Source: Bacilli bacterium
GTDB taxonomy: Bacteria; Bacillota_I; Bacilli_A; RFN20; CAG-826
DNA length: 64,000 bases
Assembly (NCBI GenBank): GCA_017651165.1
Contig: JAGCDH010000004.1
Location: forward strand, 5,096-69,095
Direction: 5' to 3'
Made by a program: the position numbers and the translations under genes. The notes beneath the pieces are model-generated. The model worked only from the letters and a program-made list of their open reading frames with translations, did no database searches and was not told where the DNA came from. How positions within the stretch are numbered: the stretch's first letter is position 1; each line of letters opens with the position of its first letter. Shown here one piece after another: positions 11,036-27,137 of this stretch.

Positions 11036-12016
11036 ATGAAATATAAACCTTCTTGCCTAGCATTAATACCTTTGCTGTTGACTAGCTGTAATGCTGGAAC
11101 ACCATCAAAGGTTTCTTTTCCTTTGAGAGATGGTGAACGTTTTGTGGTTACTAATGAACCGTTAACACAAGAAGAATACTTCTATATAGCAGAACGTGTA
11201 ATTGATAGCGTTAGTTGTTACAGCCTTGATTTTACTCTCTCTTTTTTATCTAATGCGGACGGAGAGTTCAACATCACAACAACTGGGTCGTGGAACGCTG
11301 ATAAGAGTGTTGGTGGAACATTCACAATAAAAACTGGCAAAAGCGTTTGGGTTACCGCTAGTTATAGTGAATCAACAGGACTTAAAAACACTTATAATCT
11401 TAAATATTTGACATATGATGGAAAATTAGAATATGGTCTTCTATTAGACACCTCTATGGTCTATCTCACGACTGATTATTCTTATAATCCAAATCTACCA
11501 ACTAGTTATTCTGAAGACGACTCTTCTTTTAAGACAACACCTAAAGAGCATAAAGCCATCGAACTTACATGTGATATTTTTAATAATCATGGTTTTTCTT
11601 TTCTTTCACCGTTTCCTGCTGTTGTGAATTATCAAAACGATGATGTTTATCTTGAAGATAAACCAGTCTATTCTCATGAACTAACTTCAAAACACTTAGT
11701 TCTTCACGAAAAAAGAAAAGCGCTTGTTTTACCTATAGTATCTTCCGATGAAGATGTTCGTTCTGCGTACTATAACTCCCTTTTAGGTGAAAATAGCGAC
11801 TATTATCTAAACAGTACCTATTATTATAATTACCGAAATGGAAAACTATCTAAGTTTGAATGCTCTTTCTGTGTACCGCAAGGGAACAAAACAGTGGGTA
11901 CGTGTACTGTGATATATAAGAATAGACACGGAAAAGAAAAGCAAGAAGCCAAAAGCCACGTTAAAAAGTTCCTCGGCTTTAGAGGTGTTGAAAGAGGATT
12001 AGATCCAGTAGAATAA
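11036..12016 (+). CDS. Lipoprotein, paralog A of a tandem pair
   Basis: Lipobox LLLTSC. It shares LTQEEY, SHELTSKHLVLHEKRKA and YYYNY blocks with the next gene. Confidence 0.65.
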   Translation: MKYKPSCLALIPLLLTSCNAGTPSKVSFPLRDGERFVVTNEPLTQEEYFYIAERVIDSVSCYSLDFTLSFLSNADGEFNITTTGSWNADKSVGGTFTIKTGKSVWVTASYSESTGLKNTYNLKYLTYDGKLEYGLLLDTSMVYLTTDYSYNPNLPTSYSEDDSSFKTTPKEHKAIELTCDIFNNHGFSFLSPFPAVVNYQNDDVYLEDKPVYSHELTSKHLVLHEKRKALVLPIVSSDEDVRSAYYNSLLGENSDYYLNSTYYYNYRNGKLSKFECSFCVPQGNKTVGTCTVIYKNRHGKEKQEAKSHVKKFLGFRGVERGLDPVE

Positions 12017-12023
12017 AATAAAT

Positions 12024-13082
12024 ATGAAAAACAAACTGTCTATTTTATTTTTGGGATCTTTAGTACTTACTAGCTGTCAGATTGGTGGGCGTGCTGCCGC
12101 TGACATCCTTTTAGAAGATGGTAGTGAATATCGCTTCACCACAAAGAAACTATCACAAGAAGAATATTCTTCTGTTTTTAGTCGTTTAAAGAAACCAAAG
12201 ATTGATTATAAATATAAATTCACTCTCAAGAGGCTTGGTGAAGAATTCTATAACATAACCACGAAGGGAGAGTATGCCAATTATTCATTTGATAAAGCTG
12301 ATAATAGTACTAGTGTTTATTTGTTCACCGCTAGTATTGGGAACTCATTCTTGGAAGAAAGCAGTTACCAAGAAAATAGTTTTGATGGAGATCAACGTAC
12401 GTATCATTCGGAAACAACGGTCAGCTATGGAACATATAACAGATCTTTTGATTATGGCATAGCTACTGACTATGTTTACGATAGTGCTGGCAGTGTTTAT
12501 ACTCAGTATCTTAATCCTAACGTTCCTGTTACTTACCCATCTCCAATCGATACAGTCAAAGTGAAAACGCCAAGAAAGCATTTCTATTCTATGGAACGAT
12601 TCAGGCATTTAAGTACTGCTAAAGAGATTGTAAACCTCAATGGTGTCGACACATCCATTGTTGATGTATCTGTCCAAATTTCAGAAACAGATTATCATTT
12701 TACAGACGCACCAGTTTTTTCACACAAGTTGACCTCAAAGCATTTGGTAATTGAAGAAAAGAGAAGAATGCCATCTTTAATAAGATCTCCAGACAGAAAC
12801 GTAATATATGGAGTATGTAGTGAAATTGAATCACATAGTAACTACTATTTTAATACTGAGTATTATTACAATTATTACACCGGTCATTTAGACAAAGTAA
12901 AATGTAGTTTTAATACTTTGAGCACTATGCTAGAACCAGGCGCTAGAATAAGTGGCTCATATACTTTAGAACACCAAAATAGAACATTCGCGGAAGTACT
13001 GGATGAACACTATACACACTTTTTCAAATTACGTAACTTTAAAGGTGTTATTGAATATAGAGAAGAACGTTTTGCCCGCTAA
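12024..13082 (+). CDS. Lipoprotein, paralog B of a tandem pair
   Basis: Lipobox LVLTSC. It carries LSQEEY, SHKLTSKHLVIEEKRRM and YYYNY blocks collinear with paralog A. Confidence 0.65.
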   Translation: MKNKLSILFLGSLVLTSCQIGGRAAADILLEDGSEYRFTTKKLSQEEYSSVFSRLKKPKIDYKYKFTLKRLGEEFYNITTKGEYANYSFDKADNSTSVYLFTASIGNSFLEESSYQENSFDGDQRTYHSETTVSYGTYNRSFDYGIATDYVYDSAGSVYTQYLNPNVPVTYPSPIDTVKVKTPRKHFYSMERFRHLSTAKEIVNLNGVDTSIVDVSVQISETDYHFTDAPVFSHKLTSKHLVIEEKRRMPSLIRSPDRNVIYGVCSEIESHSNYYFNTEYYYNYYTGHLDKVKCSFNTLSTMLEPGARISGSYTLEHQNRTFAEVLDEHYTHFFKLRNFKGVIEYREERFAR

Positions 13083-13231: not shown

Positions 13232-13444
13232 ATGAAAACATCAACGATCATTGGTCCGTTATTATTTGTAGTTGTGTATTTTTTCTGGGAAATTATGAAG
13301 TCAGCTTATTCGCTGTTTTCAGAGTTTACTTCTCTAAGAAATGGGATACTTGCAGCCGTTTTTGGTGTCCCAGATTATGTTATTATGATCGGCTTAGCAT
13401 TGATCGGCGTCATTAGATACATAGCCAAAAAACTATTTGATTAG
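13232..13444 (+). CDS. Small membrane protein (70 aa, two predicted TM helices)
   Basis: The hydrophobic segments IIGPLLFVVVYFFW and YVIMIGLALIGVI. No family recognised. Confidence 0.4.
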   Translation: MKTSTIIGPLLFVVVYFFWEIMKSAYSLFSEFTSLRNGILAAVFGVPDYVIMIGLALIGVIRYIAKKLFD

Positions 13445-13714
13445 TGGTGGTCTTTTCGCCATTAATTAAGACAACTTAATTGTTTTGTATATGACATTAT
13501 TATTATTTGAAGCATTTATATTGATATAAATAAATCACTAAGATATTATCTAGGCATAGAAATTGAGTATATGAGTCATAGTATGGTTGGCTCGTCTCTA
13601 CATAGCACCTATACTGCTATACTACTCATTAAGATAATTTAATGTGGGTATGTAGTAAGAACAAACTGTATACCCATTTCTTACAAGAGGAAAGGAATTT
13701 GTAAGGAGAGATTT

Positions 13715-16654
13715 ATGAAGAATAAATTTTTAACAAGAATGGCTGCGATTACACTTGGCCTAGCAATGGCTGTTGGTGTCAGTGTTGGCGTGGTAAATAA
13801 TAAAAGGGAAAAACCTGTTGTAGCGGCAGCCACTACGTATACCGAAATAGCAGGAACTAGTTTGGCTGCTGGCGATCAAGTTTTAATTACAGCCACGTCA
13901 ACAGCGAATCCGGCAGTAAATTATTATGTTCCTGTTTCAACCGATTATACAGGTTCCGCTATTTCAAATGGATTTACATATTCAGCCATAAACGACGTTG
14001 ATGATAGTCATTTGTGGACGGTTGAGAAGAATAATTCTAATTTTGCATTTAAATTTATTGATAATACTTCTACTTATTATTTAACTGTCAGCGGAACAGG
14101 AACTGGTAATAAAACAAGAATATCAACAACCACCACATATAAAAACTGGTCAATTATTAGTAAAGCAAACGGATATTCACTTCAAAATGCCACGACAAAC
14201 AACTATTTCGGCGTTTATCCAGCTGGAAGTGATTGGCGTGTTTATGCCTCATCTAGCCAAGCAAACTTTGGTGGCACCGGCGAAAGAATACATTTTTACA
14301 AGAAATATATTGCGGCTACTGGAGTCAGCTTAAATGAAACAGCACTAGAGCTTCCTGTTAGTGGGACGTTTACATTGATTCCAACTTTAGCGCCAAATGG
14401 TGCTAGCGCTACTATTTCTTGGTCCACAAGCGAACCCTCTGTTGCAACGGTTGTTGCTGGTCTTGTCACCGCTCAAAATGCTGGTTCCGCAACAATCACT
14501 GCGTTTATTGATGCCAATAGCAATGGTGCTTTAGATCAAGGCGAAATCAACGCGACTTGTTCTGTAACAGTTACTGCTGGGACCCCAGCTACCGCAATTG
14601 AATTAAACGAATCATCAGTTAATTTGCTTGCTGGTCAACAAACAACATTATCTGCTACCGTCACGCCAAACAACGCTACTGATGCCGTTGTGTGGTCTAC
14701 TTCAGATGAAACTACAGCCACAGTTAGCGATGGTGTTGTTACAACATTGAAAAATGGTATCGTTACTATCACCGCAACAGCCGGAAGCGTCCACGCTGAT
14801 TGTGAATTAAGTATCACTTCCGCTACTGCGGCAGAAAACTTTATCGGTGCAAAAATTGATCGTACAGGAAAACTGATTGCCAAAAGTGGTAAGAACGCTA
14901 TTATCGATGATGGCACTGGTGGATTTTGGGCTTATGCTAATTCAAACATCTCTCAATCAGCCGGGGCTATTGTAAATTTGAAAGGAACTTCTACTGTCTA
15001 TAGTGGTGGTTTGGAAGTTGCTAGCGCAACAGTTACTACGACAGAGAATTCTATTACAGTGTCAGAAGCAACTCCACTTTCTGAATCTGCAGCTAAGGAT
15101 TATTTAGATGCATATTTAGCAGAACCTTCTGATCCAGACTTCTTTATGCCTACCAAGAAGGTGTCTTTGAGAACAGGCGTTATTGGTGGAGAGGGATCAT
15201 ATTTAACTTGGGAATATGGTGAAACACTCATGGAAACCAATTACATCACTGGCGGCATGGAAACCGGTAAAATCTACGACATCGAAGGATATATCTTCAA
15301 ATTTTATACATCAAATGCTCAAACATATATCGTTATCGCTGTAACTGACGCTTCTGAAGTGGAAATACATGCAACATCTATTGAATTAGATAACGATTCT
15401 TTAACAATTGTTGAAGGCGATAATGATATTTTAACAGCCACCATGTCTCCTGCGGGATCTGTGGAAACCATTAAATGGGCTTCTTCGGATGAAGATGTTG
15501 CCACGGTTGATGGTGGTGTTGTGACAGGCGTTTCTGTTGGTTCTGCTACTGTTACTGCTTACATCGATGCGGATGGTGACGATGTTATTGACTTAGGTGA
15601 ATTAAAAGCGGAATGTGATGTCACTGTTATAACCCCTCCTACTTACATTCATACAAAGGTTGCGAGTTACAATTTCTCTTCCGATAATACTTCTTCTACT
15701 TCGGAATACACTAATGCGGCAACTCTTTTAGCTCGTTTTAATAACAACGACGACACAAGCCAAGGACTTTCTGATATTGTCACTGCTGTTTCTTCAATTT
15801 CCAAAGTTTATGCCGGCACAGCTAATTACTATGGTTTTGGTATTAAATTTGGTACTTCTTCAGCGAATGGAACATTCACATTGTCACTAAACACACAAGT
15901 CAAAAGAGTTGTTGTTAGAACAATTGGATGGAGTTCCTCAGACACTTTAAAGGTTGGAGACACTGATGCGCAGACCCCAGGTGTTGCGTATAACGATTCA
16001 GAGAACGATCCAATCAAAACATTGAAGTTTGACATTACTCAATCTAATAGTGTTACATTTACTTACGCAAAAAGAGGGTTTATTCAATCTATTGATTTTT
16101 ATTCCGGAACAGAAACAAGCGACCCACAAGATTTTGTTGATACTGCTTCTATTGTTCAAACAATTCATGGTCGCGAAAACTATTCGGCAGAAGTACTAAC
16201 TTCTGTAGACAATGTCGCAATAAGATTTGGCGCTTCTATTTCGAAATATAATTGGGAAGACATGAAATCAAAATGGGGAATTACCGATTATGGCGTTATG
16301 TTGATGAGTGAACAACACTTAACTGCCGGTAGTTATTCATCTGTTGAAGACGCACTTGATAAAGGAGCAAGTTCAACTTACCTTAAGGATATTCATAAAT
16401 GTCAAAATGGAACACCTTATGCAGATCCTTATTTTGATGGCGACAATTACTCATTCACAGTTAAAGTCAACTTCCCAGATGACGATCAATACTATGATGA
16501 TGTCATTTATGCCGCCCCATATGTTATTGCTGGAGGAGAACGTTATTTCTTCGGCGAGACAAATACATCAGTCCAAGCGCTAGCTCTCAGCTTATATAAT
16601 ACTGGCTATTCTTACTTATCAGATGCTGCTCTTGAGATGTTAGTTGGCGACTAA
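13715..16654 (+). CDS. Giant surface protein with three Big_2 (bacterial Ig-like group 2) domains
   Basis: N-terminal signal anchor. There are three Big_2-like segments (ISWSTSEPSVATVVAGLVTAQNAGSATITAF, VVWSTSDETTATVSDGVVTTLKNGIVTITAT, IKWASSDEDVATVDGGVVTGVSVGSATVTAY). RBS AAGGAGAG. No LPXTG. Confidence 0.8.
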   Translation: MKNKFLTRMAAITLGLAMAVGVSVGVVNNKREKPVVAAATTYTEIAGTSLAAGDQVLITATSTANPAVNYYVPVSTDYTGSAISNGFTYSAINDVDDSHLWTVEKNNSNFAFKFIDNTSTYYLTVSGTGTGNKTRISTTTTYKNWSIISKANGYSLQNATTNNYFGVYPAGSDWRVYASSSQANFGGTGERIHFYKKYIAATGVSLNETALELPVSGTFTLIPTLAPNGASATISWSTSEPSVATVVAGLVTAQNAGSATITAFIDANSNGALDQGEINATCSVTVTAGTPATAIELNESSVNLLAGQQTTLSATVTPNNATDAVVWSTSDETTATVSDGVVTTLKNGIVTITATAGSVHADCELSITSATAAENFIGAKIDRTGKLIAKSGKNAIIDDGTGGFWAYANSNISQSAGAIVNLKGTSTVYSGGLEVASATVTTTENSITVSEATPLSESAAKDYLDAYLAEPSDPDFFMPTKKVSLRTGVIGGEGSYLTWEYGETLMETNYITGGMETGKIYDIEGYIFKFYTSNAQTYIVIAVTDASEVEIHATSIELDNDSLTIVEGDNDILTATMSPAGSVETIKWASSDEDVATVDGGVVTGVSVGSATVTAYIDADGDDVIDLGELKAECDVTVITPPTYIHTKVASYNFSSDNTSSTSEYTNAATLLARFNNNDDTSQGLSDIVTAVSSISKVYAGTANYYGFGIKFGTSSANGTFTLSLNTQVKRVVVRTIGWSSSDTLKVGDTDAQTPGVAYNDSENDPIKTLKFDITQSNSVTFTYAKRGFIQSIDFYSGTETSDPQDFVDTASIVQTIHGRENYSAEVLTSVDNVAIRFGASISKYNWEDMKSKWGITDYGVMLMSEQHLTAGSYSSVEDALDKGASSTYLKDIHKCQNGTPYADPYFDGDNYSFTVKVNFPDDDQYYDDVIYAAPYVIAGGERYFFGETNTSVQALALSLYNTGYSYLSDAALEMLVGD

Positions 16655-16669
16655 GGAGGATAATTATTT

Positions 16670-16789
16670 ATGGAAAACGAAAAGAATTTTGTAAAACCAG
16701 AAGCCGAAGTCATTGAATTCTATGACGAAGATATCATTTTAACTAGTGGTGAAGGCGATATTGGTGACACTAGTTATCCTTGGTGGTAA
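16670..16789 (+). CDS. 39-aa peptide, candidate RiPP precursor 1 (ends in WW)
   Basis: AGGAGGA lies 9 nt upstream of the ATG. It encodes MENEKNFVKPEAEVIEFYDEDIILTSGEGDIGDTSYPWW and is absent from the ORF track. It is a paralog of the 16932 peptide. Confidence 0.55.
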   Translation: MENEKNFVKPEAEVIEFYDEDIILTSGEGDIGDTSYPWW

Positions 16790-16824
16790 TACCAACTAAA
16801 TTACTGTTTTAATCAACAATTTTA

Positions 16825-16850
16825 AAGGTGGAGCTATGCTCCATCTTTTA
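16825..16850 (+). terminator. Hairpin plus T-run after peptide 1 (terminator or attenuator)
   Basis: aaggtggagc-tat-gctccatctt forms a 10-bp stem with one G-U pair, followed by tttta. Confidence 0.45.
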
Positions 16851-16886
16851 TATACTTTTAATACTATAATGTTTATGAGTTTTATA

Positions 16887-16915
16887 TTGATATATAACCC
16901 CAAACAACATATTAT
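16887..16915 (+). promoter_or_regulatory. Putative sigma-70-type promoter for peptide 2 and downstream genes
   Basis: TTGATA, a 17-nt spacer, then TATTAT, ending 16 nt before the ATG at 16932. No clear SD lies in between. Confidence 0.25.
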
Positions 16916-16931
16916 TAGTTATACACCGCAC

Positions 16932-17072
16932 ATGAAAAATAAGAAGACAGATAAACAATTTGAAAAACCAGTTTTGGAAATCGTTGAATTTACCAATGAC
17001 GATATCATTACTGATAGTTTTGGCGATCCTGAACCAGGCTCAGGCGATGTTTTACCAAAGGGCTGGTGGTAA
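16932..17072 (+). CDS. 46-aa peptide, candidate RiPP precursor 2 (ends in WW)
   Basis: It encodes MKNKKTDKQFEKPVLEIVEFTNDDIITDSFGDPEPGSGDVLPKGWW. It shares an F-x-K-P-x-[AL]-E-[VI]-[IV]-E-F..D-I-I block and the WW-stop with peptide 1. The 78-aa TTG-started ORF call is rejected. Confidence 0.5.
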   Translation: MKNKKTDKQFEKPVLEIVEFTNDDIITDSFGDPEPGSGDVLPKGWW

Positions 17073-17083
17073 TAAACCAACTT

Positions 17084-19903
17084 ATGAAATTCAAAAAGTC
17101 ACATCTATATAAAATCGGCGCGTTTACCGCTGTTTTAACTTTAAACATTAGTTTATATGTCAATCTTAATAAAAAGCCTGTAGAAGCATTAAATGCTTAT
17201 AGTACAAGCGATTTACCAACCACAATTAACTTGAATGATTGTAGTGATTCAGAAATAAGATCATATTACTCTGGTCTTAATTCTTTAGACGCTTCCCAAA
17301 GAAAAGGCACTAATCTTTTAAAGAACTTAAAAACAATCTTATCTAACGGACAAAAATACTATAACTACGATAGTGGTGATAATGTCTGGAAGATGTATGA
17401 AATAACAGATAGAGACTGGGTGAAGTCTCCTGCTAATGCTATTAACTACGGGACATATAACTCAAATACCAATACGATAACTGGCTATAAGTATGGTTCT
17501 AATTATGACAACCCATACCTTCATGCTTTATATGTGAATAGAAATGTTGCTAACCATAATACACGTGCATGGGGTGACCATACTCAAACTAACTATGGAA
17601 TCAATAGAGAACATATCTGGGCTAAGTCACATGGTTTCCAAGCAGAAGGTGCTGCTGGTGCAAGAGGCGATCCAATGCACTTATGGGCCGCGAATGGCTA
17701 CGCTAATAACAAACATAGTAACTACTTCTTTGCGTTCGTAGATAAAACTAGATCATATGATAACTGTGGTTCAGCCTATAGTTATATTTCTGGCAATTAT
17801 AAGGGATATTCTAAGAACTTAGGCGGCAACCAAAACGTCTTTGAACCACAAGATTCAGATAAAGGTGATATTGCTAGAGCCGTATTCTATATGGTCGCTA
17901 GATATAACAACTACGCTGGTAACGATAATAGTATTGGTACAAATAATCCAAACTTAGTTTTAGCGAATAACTTATCTGAAAATAGTAGAACTGGTACATC
18001 AACCGCTAACGATCCATATGCGATGGGTGTATTAAGTGACCTTTTAGCGTGGAACAAACTTGATCCAGTTGATGAATACGAAAAACATAGAAACAATCTT
18101 CTATATAGAAACTTCACAAATAATAGAAATCCATTTATTGATTTCCCATCTTGGGCTGACGCTATTTGGGGAACAGCGGATTTAGATGGCACAAACTATA
18201 ATTCTTCTATTACCACTGTTGCTAATCCGGCATTAGACTCAATTAATTCTGGTGCTGCTGGTAATGCATTCAATATTTCAGTAGGTAATCTTGATTTAGA
18301 AGTTGGTGATACCGCAGAAATCTATGGTAGCAACGCTAACGGTAATATTACTTGGACAGTTAGCGACAATACTGTCGTGAGTTTAAGTAAGAACAGTAGC
18401 ACTAATAATGAAATAGTAACTATTACCGCTTTAAAGAGTGGTAACACTACAATTACCGCCACTAGTGGTGGCAACAGTGAAACATGTACAATTACTGTTT
18501 CCGATAGTGTTATTAACTATGGCTCACCAGAGCATCCTTTAACTATTACACAAGCCAAACAAGTTATTGATACCGTTAGTGCTGGTTCTCTAACACCAGA
18601 AAAGATGTACGTTAAAGGCATTATTTCTTCCAATACAGCCTTTAATACTAAATACAACAATTACGACCATGTCTGGTTACAAAGCGAAGATGGGCAAACA
18701 ACGAACGCTTTTGATTTAAGACGTTCTATTTTAGATGATTCTATTACTGATGATTATTCCGCCGCTAATTCTATGCAAGGCCTTGAAGCAGTAGCGTATG
18801 GCTTTGGAGAGTTTTATAACTCCACGTATCAACTATTTACAGACGCAAATAATCAAAACAATCCTTTGATTCTTTCTCTTGAACCGGTTGTTATTCCAGA
18901 GAAAACACCACAAGAAAAGATAGAAGAAATAACAACCACAACAAAACTTTCATATCGTTACACATCGGAAGAAAGTGAAGGCTCTGTTACTGATACTTTA
19001 AACAAAGCATTTACCGGTAGAACCGCAACGAAATATGAAGACTGGACTAACGATGGTGTTTCTGGCGTTACCTACGTCGGCCAAAGTGCTGCCGGGAACA
19101 ACGCAATTCAACTAAGAAGTAACAATAATAATTCAGGTATTGTTGTTTCAGCTAATCCAAATAGTCTTCCGGCAGCTAGCATTACCGTCGCTTGGAATCA
19201 AAATACAGAGGACGGGCGTACTTTAAATGTTTATGGTAAGAGCACAGCGTATTCCGCTGCTACTGATTTATATAATGCGAATAGTCAAGGTACCTTGCTA
19301 GGAACAATTGTTTATGGAACTAATACAAGTTTGACCATTACAGGCTCTTATCCGTTTATTGGATTTAGATCTAGTAGTGGTGCCCTCTGGTTAGACGAAG
19401 TCCAAATCGTGTGGGGTAGTGGTTCTTCTACTACCTATGAATATAGTGATGTATCTATTAGATTTGGTGGACTTCTCTCACAAGACTTATGGAATGATCT
19501 AGATACTGAAAACCATGTTATCGAAGGTTTCGGTGTCATGATTACCACTTATGATGTTTTAGAAGGTGAAGACATTAAAGACTATTACGATAATGCTGAA
19601 CCGGCAGAATCTGATCCAGATATCGAAGATGACATTATTAACCACTATATGGATAAGACAGAAATGAGTGTTCCTCCAGAACAAGACGATAACTATTTCT
19701 GGAATCTATTCTTTAGAATAACTGATTACACAAAGGTTTATACCGCTGCGGCATATATTAAGACATCATCAGAATATGTCTTCTTTGGTCAAGTGACATA
19801 TTCCGTTAAAACATTAGCGGAAGATTATATCGCCAATAGGGGATATTCTGCTAGTGCTGCAAATGGTTCATTAGGTAACCTTGCTAATCTATCCGTTAAC
19901 TAA
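17084..19903 (+). CDS. Secreted or surface endonuclease I-family nuclease fused to Big_2 and other modules
   Basis: Endonuclease_1 motifs: NREHIWAKSHG, GDPMHLWAANGYANNKHSN, EPQDSDKGDIARAVFYMVARY and NNRNPFIDFP. There is a Big_2-like segment (ITWTVSDNTVVSL...ITATSGG) and an N-terminal signal anchor. ATG at 17084 is preferred to the GTG at 17066. Confidence 0.85.
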   Translation: MKFKKSHLYKIGAFTAVLTLNISLYVNLNKKPVEALNAYSTSDLPTTINLNDCSDSEIRSYYSGLNSLDASQRKGTNLLKNLKTILSNGQKYYNYDSGDNVWKMYEITDRDWVKSPANAINYGTYNSNTNTITGYKYGSNYDNPYLHALYVNRNVANHNTRAWGDHTQTNYGINREHIWAKSHGFQAEGAAGARGDPMHLWAANGYANNKHSNYFFAFVDKTRSYDNCGSAYSYISGNYKGYSKNLGGNQNVFEPQDSDKGDIARAVFYMVARYNNYAGNDNSIGTNNPNLVLANNLSENSRTGTSTANDPYAMGVLSDLLAWNKLDPVDEYEKHRNNLLYRNFTNNRNPFIDFPSWADAIWGTADLDGTNYNSSITTVANPALDSINSGAAGNAFNISVGNLDLEVGDTAEIYGSNANGNITWTVSDNTVVSLSKNSSTNNEIVTITALKSGNTTITATSGGNSETCTITVSDSVINYGSPEHPLTITQAKQVIDTVSAGSLTPEKMYVKGIISSNTAFNTKYNNYDHVWLQSEDGQTTNAFDLRRSILDDSITDDYSAANSMQGLEAVAYGFGEFYNSTYQLFTDANNQNNPLILSLEPVVIPEKTPQEKIEEITTTTKLSYRYTSEESEGSVTDTLNKAFTGRTATKYEDWTNDGVSGVTYVGQSAAGNNAIQLRSNNNNSGIVVSANPNSLPAASITVAWNQNTEDGRTLNVYGKSTAYSAATDLYNANSQGTLLGTIVYGTNTSLTITGSYPFIGFRSSSGALWLDEVQIVWGSGSSTTYEYSDVSIRFGGLLSQDLWNDLDTENHVIEGFGVMITTYDVLEGEDIKDYYDNAEPAESDPDIEDDIINHYMDKTEMSVPPEQDDNYFWNLFFRITDYTKVYTAAAYIKTSSEYVFFGQVTYSVKTLAEDYIANRGYSASAANGSLGNLANLSVN

Positions 19904-19910
19904 TAAGAGT

Positions 19911-20624
19911 ATGGTGAACTTCAAAATTAAAATCGCCGAAATAGTGTTAGAGATTAATGCTTTTAATGAAATCACAAAGAAGTATTGTAGGGACTTTTTA
20001 AGTGACGAAGAACCTGACTATATTATTACTCTAACTGAAGAAGATCTAAGAAATGAAGTTACTGAATCAAATAATGGACACGTGTATGTAAACGAAGAGA
20101 TCTCAGCGTTATATCGTAAGATCGCAGACTTACTCATTGAAAACGATATCATTGTCTTCCATGGTTCATCTTTTAAAGTTAAAGATAGTGGCTTTATAGT
20201 GACCGCGAGAAGTGGTGTGGGTAAATCCACTCATGTGAAGTTATTAAGTGAATACTTAGGTAATGATTTTGAATATATTAATGATGATAAGCCATTACTT
20301 AAAGTAAAAGATGAATTAGTGTTATATTCCAATCCTTGGAATGGTAAAGAAAGAAGAGGTAATAATACCTCCGCTTCCTTAAAAGCGGTCATCTTCCTTA
20401 ATAGGGGAGATAATACTTATAAGAAACTAGATAATAAAGAAGAAGTCTACTTTAAGTTATTAAGTCAAATCTATTTACCAAGAGATAAAGCTAAAAGAGA
20501 AAAAGCTTTGAAGTTAATTGATATATTATTAAAGAGACTTAATTTTTATGAAATTAATGTCAATATGGATATATCTTCCGCAGAGATGACTAGTGAAAGG
20601 ATTATTAAAAATGAAATTAAATGA
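19911..20624 (+). CDS. HPr kinase-like P-loop protein (HprK-related kinase)
   Basis: FHGSSFKVKDSGFIVTARSGVGKSTHVKLL matches the HprK C-terminal domain pattern (HG..v...g.G.li.G.SG.GKS), followed by NDDKP and NPWNGK. ATG at 19911 lies 7 nt after the nuclease stop. Confidence 0.7.
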   Translation: MVNFKIKIAEIVLEINAFNEITKKYCRDFLSDEEPDYIITLTEEDLRNEVTESNNGHVYVNEEISALYRKIADLLIENDIIVFHGSSFKVKDSGFIVTARSGVGKSTHVKLLSEYLGNDFEYINDDKPLLKVKDELVLYSNPWNGKERRGNNTSASLKAVIFLNRGDNTYKKLDNKEEVYFKLLSQIYLPRDKAKREKALKLIDILLKRLNFYEINVNMDISSAEMTSERIIKNEIK

Positions 20625-20877
20625 GAACTTTTTAATCCATCAAACAGATAATGGTGAAATCTTAATTCCAGTAGGGGAAGAAACTAAAAGATTTCATGGT
20701 GTTATTAAACTCAATAGCACTGGTTCTGAAATAGTCCACTTATTAGAAAATAATGATCTGTCATTAGAGGACATTCTTAATCATTTCTATGAAGAATATC
20801 CTGATAATAAAGAAGAAGTCAAAGAAGGGGTCACTAGTTTTATCAATAAACTAAGAGAAATCAATGCCGTCATTTGA
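20611..20877 (+). CDS. PqqD-family protein (RiPP recognition element-like peptide chaperone)
   Basis: 88 aa. IKLNSTGSEIVHLLENNDLSLEDILNHFYEEY....VKEGVTSFINKLREINAVI matches the PqqD pattern (LN.tG..i..ll....s.e.i......y......dv..Fi..L). It overlaps the upstream gene by 14 nt. Confidence 0.7.
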   Translation: MKLNENFLIHQTDNGEILIPVGEETKRFHGVIKLNSTGSEIVHLLENNDLSLEDILNHFYEEYPDNKEEVKEGVTSFINKLREINAVI

Positions 20878-21286
20878 AGAAGTGTTAGATAAGGATGGTG
20901 AATTAATATTCACCAACGTTGGTTATTCTATGTATCCTTTGATTAAAGAACGAGAGGATATTTTAAGAATCGTTAAAACTGATGCTTTTAAGAAAGGTGA
21001 TATTATTCTTTTTAAATCTGAGATAGACCACTATGTGTTACACAGAATCTTAAAAATTAAAAAAGATAAGATTATTACTGCGGGCGATCATAACTACCGT
21101 AAGGATCAACCAATTACTAGGGAACAAGCCCTAGGAAAGCTCGTATCAATCAAAAAGAAAGATGGTAAGGAAATAGATCTAGCGAAAGATAAAAAGGCCA
21201 GAAAGTTCTTTTATACAAATTTCTTTCACGTTAAAGCATTCTTCCAAATGTTGGGTACAGTATTACATTTAAGAAGAGTTAAGTGA
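20864..21286 (+). CDS. S24/S26-family peptidase, SipW/Sec11-like Ser/His type, no TM anchor
   Basis: GYSMYPLI supplies the Ser nucleophile box. VLHRIL puts His where bacterial SPase I and LexA have Lys. AGDHNYRKD matches the GDN..D box. No hydrophobic N-terminus. It overlaps the PqqD gene by 14 nt. Confidence 0.65.
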   Translation: MPSFEEVLDKDGELIFTNVGYSMYPLIKEREDILRIVKTDAFKKGDIILFKSEIDHYVLHRILKIKKDKIITAGDHNYRKDQPITREQALGKLVSIKKKDGKEIDLAKDKKARKFFYTNFFHVKAFFQMLGTVLHLRRVK

Positions 21287-21397: not shown

Positions 21398-22318
21398 ATG
21401 CCGACCATTGTTGAATTACTTAGCGAAAAGAAGCAACTTGTTAATCAATTAGATTCCATGATTTATGGATCAATTGAAATTAGAGACGAGAAGTACATCT
21501 ATGTTCATTTTAGACAAGATGGTGCTTTAATGACGAAATACGCTGGTGAATACTCCGATGTTTTGTATAACTTAATTATCAACAACACAAACCACGCTAA
21601 AGAGATTAAGAAGCACATCAAAGAAATCAACAAAGAGTTAAAAGCTCTAAACTATGTTGAAGTTGAAGGTGTTGATGAAATGGTAGCAATGAATATTGAT
21701 TTAGCCAGAAGAAACCTCGTTGATTCTATTTATAAACAATCGATGTTAGAAGGTGTGGCCACGACATACTCTGATACAGAAACTTTAGTTAATGGCGGAA
21801 GAGTTAATGATATGAGCGCTGTTGATGTTGACAAAGTCATCAATCTAAAGAGAGCGTGGCAGTTTATTATGTCAATTGATTTAGCAAATTATCCAACTAA
21901 CTATGCTGTGTTATGCCAAATTAACCAAATTGTGGAAGATGGTTTTTCTGTGACCGCAGGAAAGATTAGAAAAGTGCCTGTCGCTGTTGGTGGATCATCA
22001 TATATCCCACCAATTCCTTTTGAAGATCAAGTTAAACAAGATATCTATGATATTCTACATCAAGAAGAAGGCGTCGATTTAGCTGTTGACCTAGTTTTAT
22101 ATGTAATGAAAAAGCAACTATTTTTAGATGGTAATAAAAGAACTGCAATTATATTCGCTAATCACTATCTAATTACACACGCCCTTGGTTTAATAGTGGT
22201 CCCTGCCGAATTAGTGGACGAATATAAAAAGATTCTCGTTTCTTATTATGAAAATGAAAACAAAAAGGAAGATATTGCAAATTTCTTAAAAGAAAAATGC
22301 TGGATTAGATTAAAATGA
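21398..22318 (+). CDS. Fic/Doc-family protein with a Doc-like, His-less motif
   Basis: Fic fold cues are QSMLEGVATTYSDTETLV and GKIRKVPVAVGGSSYIPP. The active-site loop reads QLFLDGNKRTAI, against canonical HPFxDGNGRxxR and the Doc motif HxFxD[AG]NKR. Confidence 0.65.
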   Translation: MPTIVELLSEKKQLVNQLDSMIYGSIEIRDEKYIYVHFRQDGALMTKYAGEYSDVLYNLIINNTNHAKEIKKHIKEINKELKALNYVEVEGVDEMVAMNIDLARRNLVDSIYKQSMLEGVATTYSDTETLVNGGRVNDMSAVDVDKVINLKRAWQFIMSIDLANYPTNYAVLCQINQIVEDGFSVTAGKIRKVPVAVGGSSYIPPIPFEDQVKQDIYDILHQEEGVDLAVDLVLYVMKKQLFLDGNKRTAIIFANHYLITHALGLIVVPAELVDEYKKILVSYYENENKKEDIANFLKEKCWIRLK

Positions 22319-23964
22319 AAAACAAAGAAACACTAAAGTTCATATCTAATAACATCAAAGGCTGTAAGACTAAGATCTTCATTCTTTCTTTATGCCAAAT
22401 TATGCTTGGTGTTCTTGTCGTTGCGTTTTCGTTTACGCTCCGCTACATCATTAGAGCGATTGAAAGCCATGGTCAAGCATCATTAACTAAGTGGACGATT
22501 GTGATGAGCTGTATTGCCTTTGGCATTGTGGTCTTACAAATCTTCTATCGTATTTACTATGAATATAGCCACGTCGCAATTGAAAATAAGTTAAAAGACA
22601 ATCTTTTTAAAACCATTCTTTCTAAGAACTATCAAGATGTGAAAAAGATCCATGATGAAGAATGGATTCATCGTTTAACTAGTGACACTAGTGTGATTGC
22701 TTCTTCGATTTTATCAATCTTACCTTCTTTATGTAGAATGGTTGTTCAACTCGCCTTAGCTTTAGCGGCGATTATCTATTTATATCCAGTCTTTGGTTTA
22801 TCATTATTACCATTTATTGTCTTAGTTATTCTATTAACTTATTTCATGAGGAAACGCTTAAAAGCGTATCATCATTTAGCACAAGAAAAAGATGGTAAGG
22901 CAAAAGTCTTCTTTTCTGAATCGCTTCAAGGATTATCAATTGTGCATTCTTTCGTTAAAGAAGATGTCTTTTCAAAGAAAAACGAACAGAACTTAGAAGA
23001 ATATAAGAAAGCGAGAGTAAAAAGAAATCTCTTCGCCGTATTCTGCTCTGTTGGTTTTATCGTTGTTTACTATACTTTCTATATCTTGGCCATTATCTTC
23101 TGCGGTAACGCAATTATTAAGGGTTCAATGACTATTGGTTTATTGACCGCTTTAGTAGCGCTTTTAACTCAATTAACAGGCCCATTAGGTAACTTAACCG
23201 CAATTGTTCCTCAATACTATTCTTTAATCGCTTCTGGTGAACGTTTAAGAATTGAAAAGGATGAGGACGTGCATTACTTATCTAAAGAAGAAATCGCTGA
23301 TTACTATGATAAAGAATTCAAAGGTCTTTCATTTAATAAGGCCTCATTCTCTTATCTAGATAAATATGGCAATGAAGTTGAAGCCATTAGAGATTTCTCA
23401 TTAGTCGTTAATAAGAATTCAAAAGTCTTAATCAAAGGTCATTCTGGTGGTGGTAAATCCACATTATTTAAGTTAATGCTTTCTTTATTAACTCCAGATC
23501 ATGGTCAAATTAATTTATTAGATAATAAAGAACATCCTTTAGAAAAGAAATATGAAAAGCTCTTTAGTTATGTTCCTCAAGATAATCTTTTAATGCAAGG
23601 CACTGTTAAAGAAGTGGTGACTTTATTTGAAGATAAACCAAATGAAGCACAATTTAATAAAGCCTTAGAGATTAGTGATTCTTTATCATTTATTAATAAT
23701 CTTCCACTTAAAGAGAATACTTTCCTTAATGAAAAAGGTAGTGGTCTTTCTTTAGGTGAAATGGAAAGAATTGCGATTGCAAGAGCGGTGTACGCTGATG
23801 CGCCTATTCTCTTATTAGACGAGTGCAGCGCGTCATTAGACGCTCAAACAGAAAAGAAAGTCATGAATAACATTTTATCTTTAGATAATAAGACTATCGT
23901 TTTAATCTCCCACCATAAATATAACGAATCATCATTTGATCAAGTCGTTGATCTTGGAGAATAG
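22315..23964 (+). CDS. ABC exporter, fused TMD-NBD half-transporter
   Basis: Six N-terminal TM helices. Walker A GHSGGGKST, signature LSLGEMERIAIARAV, Walker B ILLLDECSASLD. ATGA start/stop overlap with the Fic gene. No C39 peptidase domain. Confidence 0.85.
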   Translation: MKNKETLKFISNNIKGCKTKIFILSLCQIMLGVLVVAFSFTLRYIIRAIESHGQASLTKWTIVMSCIAFGIVVLQIFYRIYYEYSHVAIENKLKDNLFKTILSKNYQDVKKIHDEEWIHRLTSDTSVIASSILSILPSLCRMVVQLALALAAIIYLYPVFGLSLLPFIVLVILLTYFMRKRLKAYHHLAQEKDGKAKVFFSESLQGLSIVHSFVKEDVFSKKNEQNLEEYKKARVKRNLFAVFCSVGFIVVYYTFYILAIIFCGNAIIKGSMTIGLLTALVALLTQLTGPLGNLTAIVPQYYSLIASGERLRIEKDEDVHYLSKEEIADYYDKEFKGLSFNKASFSYLDKYGNEVEAIRDFSLVVNKNSKVLIKGHSGGGKSTLFKLMLSLLTPDHGQINLLDNKEHPLEKKYEKLFSYVPQDNLLMQGTVKEVVTLFEDKPNEAQFNKALEISDSLSFINNLPLKENTFLNEKGSGLSLGEMERIAIARAVYADAPILLLDECSASLDAQTEKKVMNNILSLDNKTIVLISHHKYNESSFDQVVDLGE

Positions 23965-25095
23965 ATGGATAAAAAAGAATTCGCTAGTGGTGTATTTAAC
24001 TACCTACATCTAGTGGGCCTTTATTTAAATAAGAAGACCGCTAGTGATTTTAAGGTGGATGATAGCAATATCTCTTTTTATGTTGGATTATCTAAACACC
24101 ATTCCTTAATGGCTATATTCTATAAAGCCTTAAAATCCACGAAAGCGGACATTAGTGAAGATAATCTTAAAAAGTTAGAAGAATATTATCTATCTAATGT
24201 CAGAAAGTCTGCTTTATTTGCTAAAGAAAGAAAAGATATCTATAAGTTTTTAAATGACAATCAAATCGATTTCTTACCTCTAAAAGGTATTGTTATTAAA
24301 GATTTTTATTTAGATCCAGACACAAGAGAATTCGCGGATAACGATATTCTTTTTACCGCTTCTAAAGATAAACTTGTTAAAGAATTCTTTGTTAAAAAGG
24401 GCTATAAGGTTGAAACCTTTAGAAGAGGCAACCATGATGTCTATCAAAAGAAGCCATTCTTTAATTTTGAAATGCATCGTGATTTGTTCGCCGAGAGAGA
24501 AGACGGACGTGCTTTTTCAACTTACTTTAAAGACTATCTAAAGAACTCTTCAATTAAAGATGGATATGAACATTATTTGAACAAAGAAGACTTCTATATC
24601 TATTTCTTAGCCCACGCTTTTAAGCATTTTGATAATTCTGGATGTGGAATTAGAACATTAATAGATTTCTATTTATACCTTAAAAATAACGAACTAGATT
24701 TTGATTATATTAATAAAGAGTTAGAGATGATTGGTTTATTAGATTTTTCTAATAAGTTATCTTCTTTGTCCATCAAAGTATTTGATGAAGAAGAATTAGA
24801 TGAAGAAGAAATCGAAATGCTTCTATTTATCGCTTCGAGTGGTACTTATGGCACCTTAGCCAACAGTGTCGCTAAAGGGGTCAAAGAAAAAGGAAGATTT
24901 AGATACTTAATGCGTCGTATCTTCCCTCCAATGTCTTTTTATAAAACAGCCTACCCACGCTTATATAAAACTAAAGTCTTAATTCCTGTAGCCTGGTTTA
25001 TGCGTTTATTCCGCATCATCTTTAAAAATCCAAAAAGAGCGACCGCGGAAATCAAACTCATTAGTAAAACCAAAAAAGAAAAGAAAAGCGACTAA
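23965..25095 (+). CDS. Nucleotidyltransferase-family protein (uncharacterised NTP_transf_5 type)
   Basis: FLPLKGIVIKDFYLDPDTREFADNDILF matches the family core (LKG....Yp....R...DiDiLv). It also has FEMHRDLF and HAFKHF....GIRTLIDFYL. The start abuts the ABC stop. Confidence 0.6.
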   Translation: MDKKEFASGVFNYLHLVGLYLNKKTASDFKVDDSNISFYVGLSKHHSLMAIFYKALKSTKADISEDNLKKLEEYYLSNVRKSALFAKERKDIYKFLNDNQIDFLPLKGIVIKDFYLDPDTREFADNDILFTASKDKLVKEFFVKKGYKVETFRRGNHDVYQKKPFFNFEMHRDLFAEREDGRAFSTYFKDYLKNSSIKDGYEHYLNKEDFYIYFLAHAFKHFDNSGCGIRTLIDFYLYLKNNELDFDYINKELEMIGLLDFSNKLSSLSIKVFDEEELDEEEIEMLLFIASSGTYGTLANSVAKGVKEKGRFRYLMRRIFPPMSFYKTAYPRLYKTKVLIPVAWFMRLFRIIFKNPKRATAEIKLISKTKKEKKSD

Positions 25096-25214: not shown

Positions 25215-27137
25215 ATGAAAAATGTTTTGAAAAAGATGACTTATTTGATGGTTGGTCTTTTAGTGACCGGTTGTGGCGCCAAAATTCCAACTGAAAACAG
25301 CACATCAAATAATCCGTCAACATCAGCCAATCCTGGTAAGTCCTCAACATCCAACAACCCAGGACCAAGTAGAAGTAGTAGTTCTGCCGCTGGAGCGCAC
25401 GTCCACGCATGGTCAACAGATTGGGCCTATGATGAGACACTACACTGGCATACCTGCTCAGGATGTAATGAAAAGAACGCTAATGTAGCGCACACATTCG
25501 GTGAATGGCAAGAACAAAATTTAGGCACACTTCTTAGTAAAGAAGACTACAACCGTTATACAGTTAAGTATAAAGAATGTAGCGTTTGCCATTATAGACA
25601 AATGGATGCTACATATTCTGTTCTTCCAGAAATTAGATTTACTTTTGAAGCGAGTGATCCAAATGCCGACTTCGCTACAAAAGCGAGAAGTACTGACTCC
25701 GATAGACCAACTGTTGAAGGCAAAATTTCAGTTACCAATGCTGGCGATTTAAATATCACAGATGCTGTTGCCACTATGAAAGTCAGAGGTAACCAAACCG
25801 CCGGCTTTGATAAAAAAGGCTTACAAATCAAATTTGATAAGAAACAAAACTTATTAGATTTAAATGCTGGACCAGATGGTAAAGGCTTCAAGAAATGGGT
25901 CTTATTAGCAGATGCTAAAGACACCACAATTTCCAGAAGTGCTTTAGGTTTAACAATGTCCAAAGGCGTTATTGCCGAAGATTCTAAAGCTTGGTCAGTT
26001 AACTTCACACCAGTTTCTGTTTATCTTAATAATCAATACTGGGGCATGTACATGTTAGCCGATCAAAAAGAAGTTAAAGATGGCAGAATCAAACTAGCCG
26101 AACCAATCGAAGAAGTGAAAAATCCAGAAACTGGCAAAAAGGAAGAAGTTCCTATTATGACCACAGATATCGGTTACTGCTTCGAATTAGATAACTACGC
26201 TAAAGACGAATCCAAAAAAGCTGATGGTGGTGATCCAACATTTAGAATTGATTATGATGGCATGACTTCAAGAGACTTTAATGTTGAAGGCAATAACTCT
26301 GTCAACGATTTAGTCTACACATATACCATGAACTCTGATATTAACGATGGACCAGAGGGCACCCATGTCGATGATAGCAATAGTGAACAAGTCAAATTTA
26401 TTAAAAATAGACTTACTGCTTTATTCAAAGTACTCCATCAAGCAGCGTCCAATAATAGAGCGTATGAAATCAACGCTAATAACCAAGCTGTTGCTACCTC
26501 AGCAAAAACAGTGAAACAAGTAGTCGAAGAAAACTTTGACCTCAACGCTTGGGCGGAAGGCTTCATTATCAATGCTGTCTGCTTACCACCAGATGTTGGT
26601 TATTCCTCATTCTATATGTCATTCGATAATACGGAAAATGGCGATAAGAAGTTAAGATTTGATAACCCATGGGACTTCGATAGTAATTTTGGCAACAGAA
26701 GAAATTTCCTTGTTAACCCAGATCAAAAGAACGGTAACTACGATCCATACTACATGGATAGAACCGCTAACTTATGGTTCCAATTACTCAACAAGTTAGA
26801 CTTCTTTATTAATGATTACGTCAAACCAAAATGGAACGCCGTTAGAGAAGCTAAAGTATTTGAAAAAATGCTCGGTATGGCGGATGTTTATTACACATAC
26901 TTTGATGGCGAATATCAAAAGAACTTTGCAAAATGGACAACCACACAAGCAAGCGATCAAAACGTTGCTAGCTACTTCAACGGTGATGGCGTCAACCGTG
27001 GTGAATTAAGAACCCCATTCGTTGAAGTCAGTCAACGTAAACAAGCTCAAAAAGAAACTATCAGATGGTTGACAAGTCGTATTAATTACCTCGAAAAACA
27101 ATGGGGTAATAATAGACCAGGTGTTACCGCTGAATAG
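25215..27137 (+). CDS. CotH kinase-family lipoprotein with an N-terminal Cys/His-rich segment
   Basis: Lipobox LLVTGC. CotH-like blocks are KKWVLLADAKDTTISRSALGLTMSKG, VYLNNQYWGMYMLADQKE and KKLRFDNPWDFDSNFG. The N-terminal segment reads HVHAWSTDW..HWHTCSGC....CSVCH. Confidence 0.6.
   Translation: MKNVLKKMTYLMVGLLVTGCGAKIPTENSTSNNPSTSANPGKSSTSNNPGPSRSSSSAAGAHVHAWSTDWAYDETLHWHTCSGCNEKNANVAHTFGEWQEQNLGTLLSKEDYNRYTVKYKECSVCHYRQMDATYSVLPEIRFTFEASDPNADFATKARSTDSDRPTVEGKISVTNAGDLNITDAVATMKVRGNQTAGFDKKGLQIKFDKKQNLLDLNAGPDGKGFKKWVLLADAKDTTISRSALGLTMSKGVIAEDSKAWSVNFTPVSVYLNNQYWGMYMLADQKEVKDGRIKLAEPIEEVKNPETGKKEEVPIMTTDIGYCFELDNYAKDESKKADGGDPTFRIDYDGMTSRDFNVEGNNSVNDLVYTYTMNSDINDGPEGTHVDDSNSEQVKFIKNRLTALFKVLHQAASNNRAYEINANNQAVATSAKTVKQVVEENFDLNAWAEGFIINAVCLPPDVGYSSFYMSFDNTENGDKKLRFDNPWDFDSNFGNRRNFLVNPDQKNGNYDPYYMDRTANLWFQLLNKLDFFINDYVKPKWNAVREAKVFEKMLGMADVYYTYFDGEYQKNFAKWTTTQASDQNVASYFNGDGVNRGELRTPFVEVSQRKQAQKETIRWLTSRINYLEKQWGNNRPGVTAE

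Follow-up and report, generated by a model that had tools for sequence, protein, structure and literature searches.

Within a 64,000-nucleotide stretch of a Bacilli bacterium metagenome-assembled genome (MAG; contig JAGCDH010000004.1, hereafter the window), two short open reading frames (ORFs) at 16670–17072, mini-ORF1 and mini-ORF2, are probably the precursor (A) genes of an operon for a ribosomally synthesized peptide with post-translational modifications (RiPP) of the linear polyphosphorylated peptide (LPP) type. LPPs were first described in 2026, with about 126 gene clusters in Bacillales, and are represented by the lppA-K-B-S-D-N operon of Paenibacillus alginolyticus (Popov et al., Nat Commun 2026; PMC13381572). 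Their core genes encode a signal peptidase I-like peptidase (LppS), a RiPP recognition element (RRE; LppB), an HprK-like kinase (LppK), a nucleoside triphosphate (NTP) transferase (LppN) and an MsbA-like exporter (LppD) (PMC13381572). The window has counterparts of all five in unchanged order, with no cyclase among its scanned ORFs. Because the system appears to work like LPP yet fails the published leader motif, we class it as an LPP variant.

A large precursor family with a conserved leader

Mini-ORF1 extends from ATG 16670 to TAA 16787–16789 on the forward strand (16670–16789, 39 aa) and mini-ORF2 from ATG 16932 to TAA 17070–17072 on the same strand (16932–17072, 46 aa). Both translations match those of an earlier reading of the DNA letters (the original prediction), as does the AGGAGGA sequence at 16654–16660, which lies 9 nt before ATG 16670. 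The gene for a 979-aa protein stops at 16652–16654, and mini-ORF1 begins 15 nt further on. By pairwise alignment the two peptides are 46% identical and have in common an F-x-K-P...E-F...D-I-I..S block. Mini-ORF2 is present in NCBI as a hypothetical protein of a Bacilli bacterium MAG (MBO7573328.1), while mini-ORF1 has no NCBI annotation.

A profile of the pair retrieved 17 close metagenomic homologues in two subtypes, type 1 with the pattern ..FYDEDIILTSGEGDIGxxSYPW(W), to which mini-ORF1 belongs, and type 2 with the pattern ..EFTNDDIITDSFGDPxPGSGDVFxxGWW, to which mini-ORF2 belongs. Searching 1.84 billion representatives with a 16-sequence profile (E ≤ 1e-3) extended the family to at least 1,321 clusters at the 50% identity level, nearly all of them 35–55 aa long. 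Leader and core statistics were calculated on the best 150 representatives, with 145, 148 or 149 usable depending on the feature. The family leader follows the consensus [F/Y]xKPE[A/L]E[IV][IV]xFxx[DE]DIIx(T)S and gives way to a hypervariable, acidic, Gly-rich core. The [F/Y]xxPx[A/L] motif is found in 148/149 representatives, the residue three before the leader Pro being F in 116 (78%) and Y in 32 (21%), and a Ser stands 16 residues after this Pro (P+16) in 145/149. This invariant residue is Ser26 in mini-ORF1, whose leader covers roughly residues 1–23 to 1–26 and whose core reads (LTS)GEGDIGDTSYPWW, and Ser29 in mini-ORF2, whose core reads (TDS)FGDPEPGSGDVLPKGWW. The part that follows the Ser has a median length of 18 aa and consists of 20% Gly and 25% Asp plus Glu; the mean net charge of the cores is −4.2, and 68/148 contain Trp. 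The WW end common to both peptides in the original prediction holds inside the two subtypes but not across the family, where 7/148 representative cores end in WW and 17/148 contain it anywhere. Even among the 17 close homologues, several have a tail beyond WW, or PWGGG or PWHG in its place.

The DNA of the family varies as expected of translated genes. Among 44 distinct leader-coding DNAs, variation at the three codon positions is 0.36, 0.29 and 0.55, highest at the third; the invariant Ser is written in both codon families (AGY 25, TCN 19, with AGT, AGC, TCT and TCA all used), and a strong Shine-Dalgarno sequence precedes 42 of the 44 genes. Judged on sequence, the two mini-ORFs are conserved coding genes. 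A contrary view, that they are ORFs by chance or non-coding DNA separating large genes, could appeal to the lack of a Shine-Dalgarno sequence at mini-ORF2 and to the omission of mini-ORF1 from the NCBI annotation; in the face of 1,321 clusters, a coding-type codon pattern, a Ser encoded from two codon families and near-universal Shine-Dalgarno sequences, it is scarcely credible. The earlier identification of both as precursor peptides is borne out by the conserved leader, the hypervariable core and the linkage to modification genes described below. Neither NCBIfam nor Pfam assigned the peptides to a family, a PDB sequence search with the peptide profile returned nothing meaningful, and the literature held nothing relevant on leader strings such as DIILTS or EDIITTS.

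Between the two genes lies an 11-bp hairpin with a weak U tract (16824–16848, forward strand; z = −3.5), likely a partial terminator, followed by a promoter-like site, TTGATA-17-TATTAT (16887–16915, forward strand), which is a consensus match only and ends 16 nt 5' of the mini-ORF2 ATG. A longer 78-aa reading that starts at ATG 16836 and contains mini-ORF2 appears unlikely because its start would fall inside this hairpin. Tandem precursor pairs recur, in the window at 16670–17072 and in a related locus (L066) at 5253–5381 and 5523–5672. In both pairs the second gene is of type 2 and has no Shine-Dalgarno sequence, unlike nearly all other genes of the family.

The same leader is also found in front of Cys-containing cores, e.g. 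GGGGCSPQCQNVCIPNCEVVG and NECEPYDINNPDC (P0221, P0223, P0224, P0228 and P0238; L074 529–654). Such cores hint at use of this leader by other maturation chemistries as well.

The K-B-S-D-N module

Downstream of the precursors, on the same strand, the window encodes candidates for each of the five LPP functions. The first is a 237-aa P-loop protein (19911–20624) with the motif SGVGKST. Its AlphaFold2 (AF2) model has a pLDDT of 90.6, and the best Foldseek matches are ATP-dependent phosphoenolpyruvate carboxykinase (PEPCK) and HprK/P (E = 5e-7 to 1e-5), while the Pfam Hpr_kinase_C model matches below threshold in 8/9 homologues. We take the protein to be an HprK-like, LppK-like kinase, an assignment made at the level of the predicted fold. 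The second is a discrete 94-aa PqqD-type RRE with a putative LppB-like role (20593–20877; PF05402, E = 6.8e-11, 42.8 bits against a cut-off of 23.4). This is the PqqD-like gene that the original prediction had noticed 3.5 kb downstream, and synteny in related contigs makes it a member of the same conserved system. A PDB sequence search with the window RRE gave nothing meaningful. Next comes a 140-aa homologue of SipW/archaeal-type signal peptidase I (20864–21286; TIGR02228, E = 1.8e-13), a candidate LppS counterpart in which the alignment shows Ser22, His60, Asp75 and Asp80 to be kept. An MsbA-like ATP-binding cassette (ABC) exporter that by domain models lacks a peptidase domain (22315–23964, LppD-like) and an NTP_transf_5 protein (23965–25095; PF14907, E = 8e-41, 140.7 bits against a cut-off of 31.2), resembling LppN and PsmN, complete the set.

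This arrangement is conserved beyond the window. Contigs found from the peptides share the order big protein, peptide, Endonuclease_1 protein, kinase-like protein, PqqD, S26, (Fic), ABC and NTP_transf_5. A second survey, seeded with the 237-aa P-loop protein, found 48 GTDB loci whose constant part is K-B-S-D-N, that is, kinase-like, PqqD, S26, ABC and NTP_transf_5. The search for precursors beside PqqD or HprK-like genes that the original prediction had proposed yielded a leader-family peptide (E < 0.01, within 10 kb) in 23/48 of these loci, and the kinase and NTP-transferase are linked as tightly as the RRE. The hosts are rumen Bacilli, MAGs labelled Erysipelotrichaceae and Mollicutes, Christensenellaceae, Oscillospiraceae, Lachnospiraceae, Acholeplasmataceae and Izemoplasmatales. 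In the distant Clostridia and Acholeplasma-type loci the peptides stand directly beside K-B-S-D-N, without large secreted proteins.

In the window the order K-B-S-D-N is kept apart from one inserted gene, which encodes a Doc-like Fic protein (21398–22318, forward strand; domain match and motif inspection). Its motif, QLFLDGNKRTA, has Gln at the position of the catalytic His. In relatives the same slot holds a canonical helix-turn-helix (HTH)-Fic gene, Phd/RelB-like and ParE-like genes, or an AAA/DUF4143 gene, which suggests that its contents are hitch-hiking toxin-antitoxin or mobile genes within the operon. Because the slot varies in this way between relatives, we place the Fic gene outside the pathway as an accessory insert. 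A role as tailoring enzyme was rejected because the catalytic His is missing from the window copy and relatives fill the slot with unrelated genes; the nucleotidylation that a Fic gene might hint at was rejected because the insert is exchangeable. Literature searches on Fic/AMPylation RiPPs and on PF14907/ScmC returned nothing informative.

Directly after the NTP_transf_5 gene stands a CotH-domain lipoprotein gene (25215–27137, forward strand; Pfam). It is syntenic in some relatives (L001 and L002) and lies upstream in others (L024 and L032).

Comparison with lasso peptides and other known systems

The original prediction had read the mini-ORFs as lasso-peptide precursors, in which the RRE would hand the peptide to a B2 protease, a cyclase would join Gly1 to Asp7 or Asp9 to form the ring, and Trp residues would be the plugs. 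The leader lends this idea its main support. Besides the [F/Y]xxPx[A/L] motif, its N-terminal half (xKPELEV[LI]) resembles the paeninodin-type leader MKKEWLKPELEVL, known from a primer translation; one family member weakly matches NF033524, and lasso-type RRE models match below threshold. The genes point elsewhere. Neither an Asn-synthase-like cyclase nor a transglutaminase-like B2 protease was found in the scanned window ORFs (at least 196 aa) or in Pfam-annotated related loci, and the protease that the operon does encode is of the S26/SipW type. The proposed ring geometry also dissolves across 145 family cores: Gly1 is present in 61 (42%), and an acidic residue at positions 7–9 occurs in 63%, close to the 58% expected from composition, so that the geometry is at chance level and not conserved. 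We therefore consider a lasso product very improbable.

Paeninodin and pseudomycoidin nevertheless resemble the window system in having an HprK-like kinase, an NTP_transf_5 protein and a discrete RRE (PadeK/PsmK, PsmN and B1), but they differ from it in two respects. Namely, the window operon has no cyclase or B2 protease, and their phosphate acceptor is a C-terminal core Ser, whereas the window family conserves a Ser at the leader–core junction and none at the C-terminus.

The SynChlorMet cassette also pairs an HprK-like protein with an RRE-like partner: ScmC (PF27840) adjoins the PqqD-family protein ScmD, together with radical SAM maturases. The window likewise has a P-loop HprK-like protein next to a PqqD-family protein, and some of its homologues match PF27840 faintly. 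However, the window locus encodes no radical SAM maturases, and its own P-loop protein does not match PF27840 at E ≤ 0.01.

Streptococcal ComS/XIP type II double-tryptophan pheromones are short peptides with WW near the C-terminus and a ComR/Rgg partner. A likeness to these was rejected, as there is no ComR/Rgg partner, WW is unconserved, and the window peptides have an RRE-type leader with modification genes alongside. More generally, the mini-ORFs could encode signalling or bacteriocin-like peptides that are exported without further modification, with the leader serving export and cleavage only and the kinase and NTP-transferase acting elsewhere. Small Trp-containing peptides beside an ABC exporter would be consistent with this, as would the weak in vitro cleavage of unmodified LppA (PMC13381572). 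However, the precursors have no double-glycine motif and the exporter no C39 domain, no Rgg/ComR-type regulator adjoins the precursors, and the cores, being strongly acidic, are unlike bacteriocins. Given also that the kinase and NTP-transferase genes are linked to the locus as tightly as the RRE, this explanation seems improbable.

A probable linear phosphopeptide pathway

The closest counterpart among published systems is LPP, for which we took comparison sequences from Supplementary Data 1 of PMC13381572. The published gene clusters hit the models that the window proteins hit, TIGR02228, PqqD, NTP_transf_5 and TIGR02203, and their kinases, too, mostly fail Pfam Hpr_kinase_C (PMC13381572). 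The models for NTP_transf_5, PqqD and the MsbA-like exporter match in both systems, and the 140-aa peptidase is 39–42% identical to cluster-1 LppS homologues and keeps the Ser, His and Asp on which LppS depends. In both systems the precursors are short and number one to three, and they combine a conserved leader and an aromatic-xx-P motif with a conserved Ser about 15–16 residues after the Pro. The earlier suggestion that F-x-K-P-x-[A/L] is an RRE recognition sequence also fits here, as it resembles the [Y/W]xxPx[L/V/I/F/A] motif that discrete PqqD-type RREs bind, although Phe lies outside the Y/W set (PMC13381572).

By analogy with lppA-K-B-S-D-N, the PqqD-type RRE would bind the leader strand [F/Y]xxPx[A/L]E[IV][IV], and the HprK-fold kinase would then place one or more phosphates on the invariant Ser. 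In P. alginolyticus, LppK puts several phosphates on core Ser3 and accepts only Ser (PMC13381572). The junction Ser is a likely acceptor because it is the only universal hydroxyl, 75/148 cores having no further Ser and 24/148 no Ser, Thr or Tyr; because its distance from the Pro, 16 residues, is near the 15 of LPP; and because LppK is restricted to Ser. The leader would be removed by the SipW-type peptidase acting on substrate presented by the RRE, much as LppS depends on LppB, uses Ser/His/Asp and cuts after Thr-1; LppS cleaves unmodified LppA weakly in vitro (PMC13381572). For the Ser to stay in the product, the cut would most likely fall two to three residues before it, after ..DII. The Pro would then stand near −14, its counterparts in LppA and PbaA being at −13 and −12. 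Like PsmN in pseudomycoidin, the NTP_transf_5 protein may add to the phosphate, and the ABC exporter would secrete a short, acidic, Trp-containing linear phosphopeptide. We infer both the polyphosphorylation of the Ser and the cleavage site from these comparisons. The +80 Da (phosphate) adduct that the original prediction listed among those to look for fits this pathway.

The same enzymes could instead carry out another reaction, adding a non-phosphate group (nucleotidyl or glycosyl-phosphate) or targeting a core residue, with the junction Ser serving only as the −1 residue of the cleavage site. An x-T-S sequence followed by G, N, S or A fits the preference for small −1 and −3 residues, the phospho-Ser of pseudomycoidin receives hexoses from PsmN-type enzymes (PMC9266682), and both RRE and leader differ from those of LPP. 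However, half of the cores lack Ser and 24/148 any hydroxyl residue, and a cut after the Ser would place the Pro at −17, as against the −13 of LPP and −12 of PbaA. We regard this alternative as rather unlikely.

The window family nonetheless departs from LPP in several features. The LPP leader motif YxxPxVLxHQxIxFETxxS is not matched, with hhalign aligning 8 columns at a probability of 0.3. The aromatic residue is F in most members and Y in the rest, compared with Y in LPP; the leader has ..DIIxTS where that of LPP has ..IxFETxxS, and its Ser stands at P+16 instead of P+15. The window RRE is 29–33% identical to the 'RRE others' of sequence similarity network (SSN) clusters 4 and 9, which come from Dehalobacter, Anaerocolumna and Ruminococcus and lie outside the published analysis; in the same sequence comparison it matches an LPP RRE only at E = 1e-3. 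The cores are acidic where LPP cores are often basic or Pro-rich, and the family occurs in uncultured rumen and gut Bacilli, Clostridia and Acholeplasma-like bacteria. Finally, LPP genes are found in capsule loci, whereas those of the window family lie in cassettes of riboswitch, secreted protein and peptide.

Some of these differences, together with other observations, weigh against an LPP-type assignment. Beyond KK[F/Y]xxP, the leader profile has no significant similarity to LPP precursors, and the window RRE appears to fall outside the published LPP RRE group. The TIGR02228 match of the peptidase (50.6 bits) is just under the cut-off of 51.85, and a PDB search with the kinase profile found no solved structure that matched at sequence level. 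In the published system LppN had no detectable activity (PMC13381572). In addition, mini-ORF2 has no Shine-Dalgarno sequence, and a cut after ..TS would satisfy the small −1/−3 signal-peptidase rule at the price of losing the only conserved Ser from the product.

A riboswitch-led cassette of secreted proteins

The precursors are embedded in a cassette of secreted proteins, all on the forward strand. It opens with a purine riboswitch aptamer (13545–13644; Rfam RF00167, 58.1 bits against a gathering score of 37), which belongs to the guanine class because the equivalents of U51 and C74 are kept; a 2'-deoxyguanosine riboswitch was rejected, as the position equivalent to 51 is U and not C. A terminator-like hairpin (~13645–13676; z = −3.1) follows the aptamer just 5' of the gene for the 979-aa secreted protein (13715–16654), which has a signal/anchor sequence, three Big_2 domains and a conserved C-terminal domain of ~150 aa (Pfam and sequence). 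The riboswitch leads a transcription unit that includes this gene and mini-ORF1. Behind mini-ORF2 comes a secreted Endonuclease_1 and Big_2 protein with the same C-terminal domain (17084–19903; Pfam and sequence), whose ORF is open from GTG 17066 and likely starts at ATG 17084.

The same riboswitch precedes a unit of large secreted protein and precursor peptide in 12 related loci (L007, L010, L018, L019, L020, L022, L024, L032, L066, where it occurs twice, L069 and L073). In the rumen lineage each precursor gene follows the gene of a large secreted protein at a distance of 10–20 nt, and these units usually have the riboswitch at their head. The ~150-aa domain is common to 28/32 proteins that end no more than 50 nt before a precursor gene, distant loci included, despite differing N-terminal domains (Big_2, Flg_new and Endonuclease_1). 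Its two copies in the window (16200–16651, about residues 830–979 of the 979-aa protein, and 19450–19900) are 28% identical (E = 9e-8). The domain has no Pfam match and only 2 homologues in a word-indexed search. Its AF2 model is weak (pLDDT 64), and Foldseek returned only generic beta-sandwich matches (E ≥ 0.01). The large proteins themselves were rejected as substrates of the pathway, because their N-termini are of the usual signal or lipoprotein kind and carry no leader motif.

Because mini-ORF1 shares a guanine-riboswitch unit with a large secreted protein, its production is probably tied to purine limitation. The gene arrangement suggests, more broadly, that peptide production is coupled to purine limitation and to secreted proteins that scavenge nucleic acids. 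We tentatively raise a further possibility, one with a low chance of being correct but in keeping with the repeated cassette of guanine riboswitch, secreted nuclease or adhesin with a conserved C-terminal beta-rich domain, and precursor 10–20 nt 3'. The precursors may be dedicated partners of secreted proteins induced by purine starvation, with the acidic phosphopeptide acting on or with their C-terminal domain. In such a partnership the peptide could be, for example, an anchor, ligand or inhibitor during extracellular nucleic acid scavenging.

Upstream of the riboswitch, also on the forward strand, are two paralogous lipoprotein genes (11036–12016 and 12024–13082) with the lipobox ..LTSC and no Pfam match, and a gene for a 70-aa membrane protein (13232–13444) that is also present in L001.

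Wider window and significance

The remaining regions, 27193–29133 on the reverse strand and 31103–59887, encode a GGDEF/EAL protein, GH10 and GH130 enzymes, CE2 and SASA esterases, a Cthe_2159 carbohydrate-binding protein, sugar ABC permeases and a LacI regulator. This gene content is typical of a plant-fibre-degrading gut organism.

Taken as an LPP variant, the window system would represent a much larger sister branch of the LPPs, one that counts at least 1,321 precursor clusters, is carried by uncultured gut and rumen Firmicutes and has a leader code and an RRE type of its own. It would also offer a second natural set of leader, RRE and peptidase for studying how RREs discriminate between leaders. 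The link to a riboswitch and to secreted nucleases and adhesins gives a physiological clue, purine limitation and nucleic-acid scavenging, for phosphorylated peptides. Were the precursors indeed partners of these secreted proteins, this would be the first physiological role for phosphopeptides of the LPP and paeninodin type.

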